A stretch of DNA of 64,000 bases from Bacteroidia bacterium (lineage in GTDB: Bacteria > Bacteroidota > Bacteroidia > Flavobacteriales > Flavobacteriaceae): positions 76,831 through 140,830 of the forward strand of contig JAUICK010000007.1 in assembly GCA_030427865.1 (NCBI GenBank). Reading direction: 5' to 3'. The position numbers and the translations under genes were made by a program. This document shows, piece by piece, positions 1,461-5,358 of this stretch (within the stretch, counting starts at the first letter, position 1; each line of letters opens with the position of its first letter). The notes beneath the pieces were generated by a model, which had not been told where the DNA came from, searched no databases, and worked only from the letters and a program-made list of their open reading frames with translations.

Positions 1461-1631
1461 TTAAAAACCTTCACCTGGTTTTTCTAATGATGAAGCTTGA
1501 GCAGCCATAGGGCTTAAAAGAATAAATGTTCCTAAAGCAGTTAGTGCTGTATATTTGCCATAATTACCGATTTTTTTAAGAGCTTCTTTCCTTGAAATTT
1601 CGATCTCTTCTCTATTTATTTTTTGTTTCAT
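1461..1631 (-). CDS. Small 56-aa Tat-signal-like peptide (absent from the ORF track)
   Basis: Manual translation MKQKINREEIEISRKEALKKIGNYGKYTALTALGTFILLSPMAAQASSLEKPGEGF*; ATG at 1631, TAA at 1461-1463; fills the gap between two co-oriented genes. Confidence 0.75.
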   Translation of the reverse strand: MKQKINREEIEISRKEALKKIGNYGKYTALTALGTFILLSPMAAQASSLEKPGEGF

Positions 1632-1647
1632 TTTTTAAAGTTAAGGG

Positions 1648-4600
1648 TTACTCTAAAATTATTTTTTTTCTTATTTTTTTACTATCAGATTTAACTTCTA
1701 TAAAATAAACTCCTGATTTTAAGTTAGGCAGTTTAATTTCTTGTACTTGTTGTTCTAATAAGTTTTGATTAAAAACTACTTTTCCTAAAATTGATATTAC
1801 TTTTAAAGTAGCTTTTAAGGTATTAATACCAATTACTTTTACAGAGTTTTTTTCTGTTTTGTAAATTTTTATTGCAGTTTTATTTATAAAACTTTCTGAA
1901 GTTAGCGTTTCAGATGTTGTGTGGAGGTAAAATCGTTTACCATCTTCTATATCTTCTACAACTGTTATGCTATATGCAGAGTTGTTTTCATCAATTCTTA
2001 CAAAAACATTTTCTTCTTTATCTTCTAAGTATACTTTTATTCCGTTAGGAATATTTTTAAAATCTGCAGTAAAAGTAATTTCAGAATCTTTTTTTGCATT
2101 TACTCCAACAGGAACAACCATAGTATTAAAATTATTGTCTGGAAGTGCTTGTAAAGCATATTTAGTATCATCATCTCCAATTACTAAATGAGTATATAAA
2201 CTAAACGAAGAGCTATTTGCATTAAACAAACCTGCATCATAGCCCTCATCTAAGCCAATAGTAGTCCCAGTAATATATTTAATATCTGTACTTTTTTCAC
2301 TTGCTCCATTATTAACTTTTAGTTTAATTTCAAACCTATCTGAGTTTCCTCTTAAAAAATAATCTCCAGTTTGATGGCTCTGCATATTTTCATTTATTAC
2401 TACATTTCCATTAGAATTTACTTTAACAAAATAACCTTGACCTGGAGCTAAGTATTTTTCATCTGAAGCATTATTTATAGGTTTGTATGATTTTGATACT
2501 GTATCCCAGAAATAAATCGCTTTAAAACCAGATTGTAGAATAGAAAAATTTACATCTAAAATATTATTTACATTGTCTGCTAAGTCATTAACATTTATAA
2601 AATTAGGGTAAGGGTTACCTATTAAATTCCAACCATTAGAACCAATAGTAACATTTTTTGAAACATTATTTGTATTTACGCTTCCTGTAAAAGTGGTATT
2701 GTCTGCTGTAGATAATCTAATAGAATGTCCCATACCTGAAACAAAATTACCAGATGTAGTAGTTCCGTTTTGATAATATTCCCAACCTGGAGTAACATTA
2801 TTATATGTACCTAACCCTCTATTATTTCCAGAACCAACTGCTAAAGGATTTGCTGATGCAAAAGCATCGATATCTTGATTTTCAACAGGACTTGATATTA
2901 AATGCCAATTTGAATTGTCTTTAATATATCTATTATAAGTAATATTACCTGTTGAATTTCCTTGTACAATTAAAGAACCACTTTGTGTAGCATTAGAGTT
3001 AACATTAATAGCTCCTGTAGTAGTTAAATTGCCTGTAATTGTAATAGATTTCCCTGAACTAATATTTAAAGTTCCTGCTACAGAAACATTACTTACAGTA
3101 ATATTTTCCATATTTAAATTTGCTGTTTTTCCAGAAGGTATAGAAATATTATCTGTAGCCATTGGAAGTCTTCCTAAACTCCAATTAGATATAGTAGCCC
3201 AATTACCTGAATTAGCAGTAAAACTATTAGTTACAGGATCATTATTTATAGTTATAGAAACCTCTTTCTTATAATAATCTCCAACATTTAAAGCAACATA
3301 TGCAACTGTATAGGTACCTGTTGATGAAGCAGAAACGTCTATTTGCCCTGTTGATGAATTTATCGATAATCCAGAAGTGCTTGAAAAAGTTCCGCCAGAA
3401 ATTCCAGAAATTGTTGGTGTTGGGTCTATTCCAAAAGTTGAATAACTACTTGAATCATAAGTAAATTTTGAAAAATCATTATAATGCAACTCTATAAAAT
3501 TTTCTATAACCTTAGCATAATCTCTCGAAAAATAAGGTATAGTTGCACTTCTTGAGTCAGATCTACCATAAACAGAGGTATATGCAGATCCTAGATCTCT
3601 TACTCTTCTGTTTACCTCTGTCATAATACCATCTATGGTACCTCCTCCTCCATTTACAGAACCTCCTCCACCAACAACTGAGTTTGCTGTACCAATGTTT
3701 CCTGAACCATGTCTTATATTACTGTAATAATCACCTGCAAAGTAAGAGTTGTTTCCGGGGTTTGTGTCATCACAAGAACCTTGATCCGAGCCCGTTTTAA
3801 TATGACTCGGAACGGTTCTATACCCCACGCCTCTACTACATCCAGCATGCCCTAAAGCTGCATATTCTGTACCACCAGTGGTTTGCATTAATCCTCCAAA
3901 ACTTTCTGCACCTCTAATTAAGTCTTCGAATGTTAAGTTTTGGATGTTATTACTTATTAAATTTTTTATTGTAACTTTAGATAATTCTGATGCATTTGTA
4001 GCTGTATTATTTAAGTCTTCATCAAAAGAACTACTGCTTAAATTATAGCCTGCCTCTATTCTTGGAATAGAATGACTTTGTCCATGCAAATCTATATATA
4101 ACCCTTTTCCAAATTTACTTGTTACATCTGCGCTTGCTTGGTCTATAAACCCATGGTAAGCATCAAAATATGGTTCAGCAGAAGAGTTTCCACAAGTAGC
4201 TATACTTTTATTTCTATTTGGGTCTAATTTATTTCTTCTTAAATTATTGATTATTATATAGGGATATACTCCAAATTCATCATAACATTTCTTTTGAATT
4301 TCTCTAATTAGAACATCAGTATTGTCATCCATTTCTCCAGTTCCACAACCTCTTGTTGCAAGTTCGCTTCCTGTTAAAGTTCCTCCATGAGGTGCAGAAA
4401 TAATTACTGGCATTGTACCTGGTATGTATTCTATATATTTTTTTGATGCATTGTAATAAGTAGAAGCTACAATTCTAACAGTATATGTATATACTTTTGG
4501 GCAACTTCCGTTTGTTGTATAAGAAACTGTATAAAACCCTGGTGTAGAATCAGATACATCTATTAAACCAGTAGAAGCATTTATGCTTAAACCAGATGTT

Positions 4601-5358
4601 GATGAAAATATCCCGCTTTGACCTGTTGTTGTTGGAGATATATCTGTATCATTTTGAGTGGCAAAAGAAAAAGTATAAGCAAAAGTTGCAACGTCTCCAT
4701 CTGTAATAGATACATTTACTGTAGCACTATTTTGATCAGGAGCAGTTGTTGTATAAGTAACCACATAATTACCCAATGTAGAAGCTGAAAGGTCTATTTG
4801 TCCTGTAGTTGAATTTAACGCTAAACCAGATGTAGATGAAAATGTGCCTCCAGTTTCTCCTGTAATAGTTGGTGTAGGGTCTGATTCTGATTGGCAATAA
4901 CCAGATTTAGAATAACTAAAAGAGGCGTCATCTAATGAATCTATGGTTAATGAATAATCGAATGTAATTTCTGTATTTGCGCTTGCATTGTTTGAAAAAT
5001 CTCCATTAAAACTAAACTCTTCTGTTCCTTCTACAAATATTTTACCATAAGAACCTGTTCCATTCCAATCATCTCCGTAATTATCATAAACTCTAACTGT
5101 GTAGGTTCCGTTTGGAAGACTTACAGTATTTGAATTTTTATTTAAATAAGAAGTATTTGAACCGTTGCCATAATTGTGATCGATAGAGAGAACAACAGTA
5201 TTGGATGAGTTAATAATCTCCATTTTGTTCTCTCCAGAATAGTTTACCCAATTTACATTAATGTAAACATCTGATTGAGAAAATATTGAAAATGTTACCG
5301 AAAAAAATATTAAGACGATTGTTAATCTTAAAAAATTGTAGGGAAATTTTTTAATCAT
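1648..5358 (-). CDS. T9SS type-A sorting domain protein with an N-formylglutamate amidohydrolase-like domain and three Ser/Thr-rich repeats
   Basis: Signal peptide; PVIISAPHGG / LDPNR / IDLHG motifs; WHLISSPV and WNLIGNPY modules; C-terminal LPNLKSGVYFIEVK..KKIILE sorting domain. Confidence 0.85.
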   Translation of the reverse strand: MIKKFPYNFLRLTIVLIFFSVTFSIFSQSDVYINVNWVNYSGENKMEIINSSNTVVLSIDHNYGNGSNTSYLNKNSNTVSLPNGTYTVRVYDNYGDDWNGTGSYGKIFVEGTEEFSFNGDFSNNASANTEITFDYSLTIDSLDDASFSYSKSGYCQSESDPTPTITGETGGTFSSTSGLALNSTTGQIDLSASTLGNYVVTYTTTAPDQNSATVNVSITDGDVATFAYTFSFATQNDTDISPTTTGQSGIFSSTSGLSINASTGLIDVSDSTPGFYTVSYTTNGSCPKVYTYTVRIVASTYYNASKKYIEYIPGTMPVIISAPHGGTLTGSELATRGCGTGEMDDNTDVLIREIQKKCYDEFGVYPYIIINNLRRNKLDPNRNKSIATCGNSSAEPYFDAYHGFIDQASADVTSKFGKGLYIDLHGQSHSIPRIEAGYNLSSSSFDEDLNNTATNASELSKVTIKNLISNNIQNLTFEDLIRGAESFGGLMQTTGGTEYAALGHAGCSRGVGYRTVPSHIKTGSDQGSCDDTNPGNNSYFAGDYYSNIRHGSGNIGTANSVVGGGGSVNGGGGTIDGIMTEVNRRVRDLGSAYTSVYGRSDSRSATIPYFSRDYAKVIENFIELHYNDFSKFTYDSSSYSTFGIDPTPTISGISGGTFSSTSGLSINSSTGQIDVSASSTGTYTVAYVALNVGDYYKKEVSITINNDPVTNSFTANSGNWATISNWSLGRLPMATDNISIPSGKTANLNMENITVSNVSVAGTLNISSGKSITITGNLTTTGAINVNSNATQSGSLIVQGNSTGNITYNRYIKDNSNWHLISSPVENQDIDAFASANPLAVGSGNNRGLGTYNNVTPGWEYYQNGTTTSGNFVSGMGHSIRLSTADNTTFTGSVNTNNVSKNVTIGSNGWNLIGNPYPNFINVNDLADNVNNILDVNFSILQSGFKAIYFWDTVSKSYKPINNASDEKYLAPGQGYFVKVNSNGNVVINENMQSHQTGDYFLRGNSDRFEIKLKVNNGASEKSTDIKYITGTTIGLDEGYDAGLFNANSSSFSLYTHLVIGDDDTKYALQALPDNNFNTMVVPVGVNAKKDSEITFTADFKNIPNGIKVYLEDKEENVFVRIDENNSAYSITVVEDIEDGKRFYLHTTSETLTSESFINKTAIKIYKTEKNSVKVIGINTLKATLKVISILGKVVFNQNLLEQQVQEIKLPNLKSGVYFIEVKSDSKKIRKKIILE

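Follow-up and report, generated by a model that had tools for sequence, protein, structure and literature searches.

The 64,000-nucleotide stretch of Flavobacteriaceae contig JAUICK010000007.1 analyzed here (the window) carries, at 1461-1631 on the minus strand, a 56-codon open reading frame (ORF) that is a real gene under strong purifying selection. Its tie, in marine Flavobacteriaceae, to genes for surface proteins that are cargo of the T9SS (type IX secretion system) is real as well, and in related genomes it is accompanied by genes for an HprK-like kinase and a nucleotidyltransferase. On balance, the ORF probably encodes the precursor of a linear phosphorylated RiPP (a peptide made on the ribosome and modified after translation), similar to the linear polyphosphorylated peptides (LPPs) of Bacillota: the leader would be read by a kinase fused to a RiPP recognition element (RRE), Ser48 would likely be phosphorylated, and general machinery would export and cut the product. 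The ORF runs from an ATG start to a TAA stop (translation MKQKINREEIEISRKEALKKIGNYGKYTALTALGTFILLSPMAAQASSLEKPGEGF). All that the initial annotation had read from it as sequence features is present, namely the length of 56 aa, the motif ISRKEALKK likened to a twin-arginine translocation (Tat) signal, a hydrophobic stretch, an AQA signal-peptidase site and a remainder of 10 aa. The parts of the gene are as follows.

1461-1631, minus strand: gene for the 56-aa precursor-like peptide, with its stop codon at 1461-1463 (ORF list, homologues, and a ratio of nonsynonymous to synonymous substitution rates, dN/dS, of 0.08)
1494-1631, minus strand: leader, residues 1-46, which holds most of the 27 invariant alignment columns
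1464-1493, minus strand: putative core, residues 47-56, SSLEKPGEGF (family consensus of tails)
1488-1490, minus strand: codon of Ser48, candidate phosphorylation site (near-invariant Ser, two residues past AQA)

A word-indexed search returned 909 homologues of the peptide at E<=0.1, each 50-85 aa in length, and a profile search against 1.8 billion cluster representatives returned 296 clusters at 50% identity, all of them small proteins. Those homologues that carry a name are labelled 'hypothetical' and come mostly from Polaribacter and Tenacibaculum. The genome to which the window belongs has 10 paralogs across 8 contigs, and the reading frame is intact in all 10 as well as in hundreds of homologues. 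Entropy by codon position is 0.40/0.18/1.15 over 80 copies, and dN/dS is 0.085 among the paralogs of this genome (dS 1.16) and 0.081 over the 80 copies, with dS above 1. Two of the tests named with the initial annotation, the search for homologues and the estimate of dN/dS (~0.08, far from 1), support the gene. Because dN/dS is low at a dS of ~1.2, the paralogs are old and each is maintained by selection on the protein rather than being a recent copy, and the same dS rules out recent duplication or gene conversion as the source of their likeness. It is barely conceivable that the ORF arose by chance, or that conservation acts on RNA or DNA, through an element at the 3' end of cargo genes; the shortness of the ORF, the AT-rich DNA around it and the lack of a Pfam or NCBIfam match would fit this, but third codon positions are near saturation while first and second positions are near fixed.

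The family has the following consensus: ..E-I-[ST]-R-K-E-A-[IL]-K-K-I-G-N-Y-G-K-Y-[AT]-A-L-T-A-L-G-T-Y-x-I-L-N-P-x-K-A-Q-A-x-S-P-E-x-P-G-x-G-F. The leader motif shared by the family is [ST]-R-x-[ED]-A-[IL]-K-K, and conservation is confined to the N-terminal ~45 aa plus one Ser, which stands two residues after AxA (A-Q-x) in 209 of the 214 family members. Tails after AQA range from ~8 to ~100 residues; their consensus in Polaribacter and Tenacibaculum is x-S-P-E-x-P-G-x-G-F, and in other genera they are variable, being Pro/Gly-rich, Cys-rich, Gly/Asn/Ser-rich or long. The weight that the initial annotation had placed on a 10-aa product is therefore to be shifted towards the leader and the conserved Ser. 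In the window copy the leader consists of a variable basic N-terminus, the conserved ISRKEALKKIGNYGKY, the weakly hydrophobic TALTALGTFILL and SPMAAQA (Pro at -6, AxA at -3/-1), and a cut after AQA would free the 10-aa SSLEKPGEGF. A conserved leader, a variable core, a fixed Ser and a shared enzyme set point to the anatomy of a RiPP precursor; neither an ordinary signal peptide nor a partner co-evolving with each cargo is built in this way.

The enzyme set is apparent in more distant genera, where two conserved genes come after the peptide gene, one for a ~380-aa HprK-like kinase and the other for a PF14907 nucleotidyltransferase. The ~380-aa protein matches the model for HprK-related kinase A, TIGR04352, at E 1e-14 to 1e-21, and its AlphaFold2 (AF2) model (predicted local distance difference test score, pLDDT, ~90) gives Foldseek matches to PEPCK and HprK/P. 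Residues H198, K219, D236 and D237 are invariant; a His-Lys-Asp-Asp motif is essential in the kinases that tailor lasso peptides (PMC9266682). The first ~80 residues of the kinase are predicted to adopt a beta-beta-beta-alpha-alpha-alpha topology. The top PDB profile match of this N-terminal domain is the lasso RRE TfuB1 (E 0.2), Pfam PqqD matches it weakly (E 0.19), and one kinase homologue carries the NCBI name 'PqqD family protein'. The nucleotidyltransferase scores 93-122 bits against PF14907, for which the cut-off is 31.

Co-occurrence was counted in 301 Flavobacteriaceae genomes from 300 genera, which are related, so that the counts are not independent events. The peptide was found in 26 of these genomes, the kinase in 24, the nucleotidyltransferase in 23, and the peptide together with the kinase in 23. 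The three genomes with the peptide only are 84-94% complete, and the sole genome with the kinase only is 82% complete and has the kinase at the very start of a contig. In at least 19 genomes, ~50-270 nucleotides (nt) separate the start of the kinase gene from a peptide gene ahead of it, the same order is seen in 13 Polaribacter and Tenacibaculum loci, and the PF14907 gene directly follows the kinase gene in most genera. Exactly one kinase is encoded in the genome of the window (C20:97307-98440), directly after the C20 copy of the peptide gene with a hairpin between the two. It is this co-occurrence and adjacency with an RRE-fused HprK-like kinase and a PF14907 nucleotidyltransferase that favors the RiPP-like option among those offered in the initial annotation.

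We propose the following mechanism. The N-terminal ~45 residues of the peptide would serve as a leader docked by the RRE/PqqD-like N-terminal domain of the ~380-aa cytoplasmic HprK-like serine kinase, which would phosphorylate the near-invariant Ser two residues past AxA. The PF14907 nucleotidyltransferase may then decorate the phosphate further. Export would fall to the general machinery of the cell and cleavage to its single LepB-type signal peptidase I, so that a short modified peptide (here x-pSer-LEKPGEGF) is freed into the envelope, where it may act on the cargo. A single enzyme set would serve many scattered precursor genes, and since each precursor gene would share a transcript with a T9SS cargo gene, all of these cargo genes being of one family, the supply of precursor would track the supply of cargo.

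The closest known parallel is the LPPs of Bacillota, which are encoded by lppA-K-B-S-D-N clusters (Popov et al., Nat Commun 2026, PMC13381572). LPP precursors are 35-200 aa in length with a conserved N-terminus and a variable C-terminus, and the HprK-like kinase LppK adds up to four phosphates to core Ser3 (PMC13381572). The remaining enzymes include a discrete RRE (LppB), a SipW-like signal peptidase I for leader removal (LppS), an MsbA-like exporter (LppD) and an NTP transferase (LppN) whose product is unknown, and the clusters are found in capsule loci and are of unknown function (PMC13381572). The family described here is similar in its small precursors (40-166 aa), whose N-terminus is conserved and whose C-terminus varies strongly, in its HprK-like kinase and RRE (here an RRE-like domain) without a lasso cyclase, and in its NTP transferase, which here belongs to PF14907 and is likened to LppN by description. 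Both systems place a Ser near a signal-peptidase-type cleavage site (core Ser3 in LPPs, +2 after AxA here), and it is by analogy with core Ser3 that Ser48 would be phosphorylated. A link to the capsule is shared as well, as the nucleotidyltransferase gene of this genome stands beside Wzc/Wza-like genes; at C28:72663-77617 it lies between a PHP-type phosphatase-like gene and the Wzc/Wza-like capsule export genes.

The two systems also differ. LPPs are stated to be restricted to Bacillota (PMC13381572), whereas the present family belongs to Bacteroidota. The RRE-like domain is fused to the kinase, whereas the RRE of LPPs is discrete, and no discrete RRE accompanies the fused one here. The LPP leader carries the motif YxxPxVLxHQxIxFETxxS, in which [Y/W]xxP binds the RRE (PMC13381572); in contrast, the leader alignment here has no YxxP, the nearest arrangement being Y-x-x-x-x-P. 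Unlike LPP clusters, the genome of the window has no SipW-like peptidase, the leader itself resembles an export signal, and the precursor genes are scattered in 10 copies, with a T9SS cargo gene in front of each.

Phosphorylated and glycosylated lasso peptides such as paeninodin (PadeK/ThcoK) and pseudomycoidin (PsmK/PsmN) offer a second comparison (PMC9266682; PMC6993621). There, too, the precursor, whose leader is recruited by an RRE, is the substrate of an HprK-like kinase that has a His-Lys-Asp-Asp motif, and a nucleotidyltransferase homologue adds to the phosphate. The target Ser in lasso peptides is C-terminal, whereas the C-terminus here is usually Phe and the conserved Ser lies near the start of the core. 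A lasso peptide as such is ruled out by the lack of the B2 protease: PF13471 is absent from this genome, and no cyclase or B2 genes were seen in the loci inspected. A third comparison is with prochlorosin-type RiPP genetics, in which one enzyme serves many scattered precursor genes. The present system likewise combines one enzyme set with many dispersed precursor genes that have near-identical leaders, but the chemistry is different, near-identity extends to the cores as well, and every precursor has a cargo gene to which it is linked.

By what route would such a peptide leave the cytoplasm? The leader combines a long basic n-region, a hydrophobic core of 12-13 residues, an AxA and a Pro at -6, and its c-region has a Lys in most cases. 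The elements used by Sec and signal peptidase I are thus all present and conserved, although the h-region falls well short of this genome's Sec signals in hydrophobicity: the best 11-residue hydropathy is 1.7-2.2 in the leader versus 2.4-3.4 in the Sec signal peptides of neighboring genes. At 1.9, the h-region equals the RR-bearing N-termini of this genome (1.85) and is well under the 2.9 of Sec signals from adjacent genes. The genome encodes TatC and a single bacterial-type LepB, and a search with TIGR02228 for a SipW-like peptidase found none. No ABC exporter was seen among the ORFs of the listed loci, for which no systematic exporter search was made. Because no dedicated peptidase or exporter was found, the leader is taken to be an export signal with a signal-peptidase-I site, and we infer that general export and LepB stand in for the dedicated peptidase and exporter of LPP clusters. 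The cut may fall either after A-Q-A or before the Gln, the latter being the pattern at the ends of signal peptides in this genome.

A rather unlikely alternative is that the gene product is an unmodified signaling peptide of ~10 aa, exported through a Tat or Sec signal to the periplasm or the medium, and that the kinase and nucleotidyltransferase act elsewhere. The signal-like anatomy with its AxA, the presence of TatC and one LepB, and the hydropathy shared with RR-bearing N-termini speak for such a peptide, and the leader motif S/T-R-K-x-A-L-K-K resembles the S-R-R-x-F-L-K of Tat signals. Other features in common with Tat signal peptides are the long n-region, the weak h-region, the AxA site and, in most members, a basic c-region residue. 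The leader differs from them in that it has no conserved twin arginine, Ala in place of Phe, and almost no passenger. The second basic residue of the motif is Lys in most members and Gly, Thr, Ala, Gln, Asn or, rarely, Arg in remote ones, and the Tat signal model TIGR01409 gave no match to the peptide at E<=1. As judged from its residues, then, the leader is Tat-like in style but without a conserved twin arginine; the variation at the second basic position rules out a canonical Tat signal and leaves the Tat reading without support in the form that the initial annotation gave it. In addition, the leader is conserved beyond what is usual for signal peptides, while the supposed signaling product varies in length and composition. 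An unmodified peptide would also leave the invariant Ser without a role, and it sits poorly with a kinase that carries an RRE-like domain and directly follows the peptide gene in at least 19 genomes. A further, speculative option is that the RRE-kinase holds back a Tat-like leader as long as the peptide is unmodified, in the manner of Tat proofreading chaperones. Proteins that start with M-[DN]-R-K-x-F-L and continue with a hydrophobic stretch, Tat-like with RK for RR, are encoded at C5:31877, C11:25969 and C12:75262; RK variants of the Tat motif may be used in this genome.

The partner of the peptide gene in the window is the T9SS cargo gene upstream of it, whose features are given below.

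1648-5358, minus strand: T9SS cargo gene, 1236 aa, with a signal peptide (Sec), a variable N-terminal part, a conserved C-terminal module and a variant C-terminal domain (CTD)
1632-1647, minus strand: spacer of 16 nt between the stop of the cargo gene and the ATG of the peptide gene (from the sequence)
1651-1905, minus strand: type-A-like T9SS CTD without YPNP, matching TIGR04183 over positions 8-71 only
1906-3330 (approximate limits), minus strand: conserved module of ~470 aa, seen by eye in 10 cargoes (hidden Markov model, HMM, 574 bits)

For each of the 10 paralogs in this genome, the ATG of the peptide gene lies 13-29 nt past the stop of a large co-oriented cargo gene, and a hairpin with a T-run directly follows the peptide gene at most of these loci. 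In other genomes (78 loci), 76 of the 79 peptide genes have, 2-64 nt upstream, the end of a co-oriented ORF of at least 100 aa. These counts bear out the linkage to T9SS cargo genes that the initial annotation had proposed to check, and show it to be much stronger than was visible from that stretch alone. That annotation had described the peptide gene as lying between a T9SS hydrolase and a small secreted protein; the co-orientation, the T9SS domain and the signal peptides hold, and the label 'hydrolase' goes back to a single, sub-threshold match to FGase (21.8 bits vs 28.9).

The CTD of the 1236-aa cargo scores 34.5 bits against TIGR04183 (cut-off 23) and 31.2 bits against PF18962 (cut-off 27). 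About 60 type-A CTDs are encoded in this genome, among which the 10 linked to peptide genes form a distinct subclass. The linked CTDs match TIGR04183 only from position 8 on and lack YPNP, which is present in 40 of the 50 others, and the window CTD scores 106 bits on an HMM of linked CTDs versus 44 on an HMM of the other CTDs of the genome. The same subclass is seen in other genomes, where YPNP is found in none of the 76 linked CTDs, and 73 of them score higher on the linked-CTD HMM. The AF2 model of a homologous CTD is a 7-strand sandwich (pLDDT ~88). Linked cargoes further share the ~470-aa module that precedes the CTD (motifs NWHLISSPV, W.LIGNPYPS, PGQG[FY]FV, FLED...F.R[IL]D and GRFYLHT), while their N-terminal parts differ. 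No Pfam family covers this module, and by sequence it has no relative among the solved structures in the PDB. Its HMM matches the upstream cargo in 18 of 20 loci of other genera and gives 12 strong matches in this genome, comprising the 10 linked cargoes and two that lack a peptide gene (C61 and C63). An immunity protein was considered as an identity for the peptide and ruled out, since the N-terminal parts of the cargoes differ while the peptides are alike.

Several observations concern the arrangement of these cargo genes. The two large proteins at C61:659-6517 and C63:216445-220746 have the module and a YPNP-less CTD with no peptide gene behind them; at C61, ~130 nt and a terminator occupy the place of the peptide gene. 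At C34:32774-35344 (L002/L003), tandem cargo-peptide pairs are followed by a third large T9SS protein. The peptides of the tandem pairs are identical as proteins, which suggests that cargo and peptide duplicate as a cassette. At C48:1538-3600 (L007), a 428-aa ORF of the rve transposase-like type follows the peptide gene, and the upstream cargo gene is cut by the contig end.

Such a strict association raises the question of whether the peptide is a physical partner of the cargo. It is unlikely, though the likeliest of the alternatives that we considered, that the peptide is a small uncleaved bitopic inner-membrane protein (N-in, C-out) that acts as an accessory or anchoring factor for its T9SS cargo family, with the kinase either regulating it or being unrelated. 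The peptide gene lies strictly behind one cargo family with its own CTD subclass, positive charges gather on the N-terminal side of the peptide, the helix and hydrophobic segment are its most conserved part, and the AF2 prediction, of low confidence, is a single unbroken helix of ~25 residues. There is also a parallel in the PorP/SprF-like proteins encoded beside type-B CTD cargo genes; SprB and SprF of Flavobacterium johnsoniae are reportedly such a type-B CTD cargo and its cognate PorP/SprF-like partner. As in that case, a T9SS cargo subclass defined by its C-terminal region is regularly trailed by a small dedicated partner gene. The partner there, however, is an outer-membrane beta-barrel of ~300 aa, whereas here it is a leader-bearing peptide of 55 aa, and the CTD here scores as type A (TIGR04183).

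Against a bitopic protein stand the hydrophobic core of 12-13 residues (hydropathy 1.7-2.2), short and weak for a stable membrane span, and the conserved Pro(-6)/AxA, which resembles a cleavage site. Once the window copy is left aside, the peptide does not vary with the cargo either. The peptides of this genome differ from one another by 7-17%, while the CTDs of their cargoes differ by ~50% (mean distance 0.07-0.17 vs ~0.5), and peptides so much more constrained than the CTDs fit a single shared enzyme set. A Mantel test of peptides against CTDs gave r 0.64 (p 0.04) with all copies and r 0.09 without the window copy, so that peptide-CTD co-evolution was rejected as a signal carried by the window copy alone; the cargo of that copy has the most divergent of the ten CTDs. 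AF2 was run on in-frame fusions, which were single chains from loci with both genes in one frame and had stop codons read as Gly. For the CTD-peptide read-through, with an alignment of 24 rows, the model showed all 7 strands of the CTD and, undocked and of low confidence, a helix without peptide-CTD contact, and we therefore rejected as unsupported the idea that the peptide completes or binds the variant CTD as a donor strand or in a complex. Finally, a bitopic protein leaves the near-perfect co-occurrence with the kinase and nucleotidyltransferase unexplained.

Several points nonetheless weigh against a precursor of the LPP type. The kinase scores 60-74 bits against TIGR04352, for which the cut-off is 200; because the score is below the cut-off, the kinase, classified by its profile match, belongs to a family related to TIGR04352 and not to that equivalog. 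By sequence, all RRE assignments of its N-terminal domain are weak (E 0.2), and the leader is without the [Y/W]xxP motif bound by the RREs of lasso peptides and LPPs. When peptide and kinase genes were read in frame through the stop codon and modelled with AF2, the kinase was well folded and the peptide was undocked with pLDDT below 50; junk residues in the linker and an alignment of 60 rows, most of them without a pair, make this a weak test. Docking on the CTD was not seen in the corresponding CTD-peptide fusion either, and the LPP-like mechanism leaves the T9SS cargo as partner without an account. The one PF14907 nucleotidyltransferase of this genome adjoins no peptide gene. The window copy is the outlier among the 10 paralogs, the most divergent of all at 29% difference, and it has no Lys in the c-region. 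As for export, the Tat route would need a twin arginine, which the family does not conserve, and we know of no citable precedent for a phosphorylated or glycosylated Ser beside the cleavage site passing through Sec.

One way in which the precursor could be connected to its cargo, although a long shot, is that the processed peptide is a consumable linker for attachment of the cargo to the cell surface. Under this speculative mechanism, the free N-terminal amine of the peptide (residue +1) would be the acceptor for a PorU-type sortase that ligates the new C-terminus of the cargo as the variant CTD leaves. The adjacent phospho-Ser, once activated by the nucleotidyltransferase, might conceivably tie the peptide to a surface glycan or lipid. 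In Porphyromonas gingivalis, the linking sugar of A-LPS (anionic lipopolysaccharide) reportedly carries a seryl residue whose amino group is the point of attachment for cargo, a finding attributed to Veith et al. in 2020. A linker would account for one peptide gene per cargo gene in one transcript, for the separate CTD subclass, and for the invariant Ser by the cleavage site. It would also account for the pairing of a kinase with a nucleotidyltransferase, by the logic of an activation pathway, and for the presence of the nucleotidyltransferase gene beside capsule genes.

If the peptide is indeed an LPP-like precursor, a RiPP class that was described in 2026 and stated to be limited to Bacillota extends to Bacteroidota. 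It would do so with another layout, in which RRE and kinase form one protein, the leader doubles as an export signal, and neither a dedicated peptidase nor a dedicated exporter has been found. The modified peptide would moreover be tied to type IX secretion. Published accounts of the T9SS mention no such partner for type-A-like cargo, and our literature searches for a small peptide linked to the T9SS found none. The system makes surface retention of T9SS cargo without A-LPS testable in Flavobacteriia. The four-gene unit of cargo, peptide, kinase and nucleotidyltransferase is present in ~8% of the sampled Flavobacteriaceae genera, and the cargo-peptide pair reaches ~10 copies per genome in Polaribacter and Tenacibaculum, the latter of which includes fish pathogens. 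For annotation, hundreds of peptide mini-genes are either unannotated or labelled 'hypothetical', and the 470-aa module of the cargo is without a family model.

Some further genes stand near the members of this unit. In three distant genera the nucleotidyltransferase gene is followed by a gene for an outer-membrane beta-barrel of ~165-190 aa with a weak match to PF13505 (L095:6483-7055, L098:1-493 and L099:1-503), and this small beta-barrel could be a fifth member of the unit. In the window, a 149-aa protein with a signal peptide and no family match is encoded at 956-1405 on the minus strand, downstream of the peptide gene and co-oriented with it; it has no counterpart among the ORFs listed downstream of the other nine paralogs. 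By eye, no terminator-like hairpin follows the window peptide gene, unlike most copies, and for this reason the gene at 956-1405 may be co-transcribed with it.

Other variants were seen within the peptide family itself. Five members (P0175, P0177, P0188, P0194 and P0216) have the motif LSRGEAIKKIGGY, with RG instead of RK, and their tails, 60-90 residues long, abound in Cys, Pro and Asp; they give the impression of a distinct subfamily whose core is folded and disulfide-rich. At L067:4001-4700, a tandem pair of peptide genes stands ahead of the kinase gene. The first of the two peptides is 83 aa in length and has a 27-residue acidic extension past PGTDF, a long form that is also found in L030 and L055.

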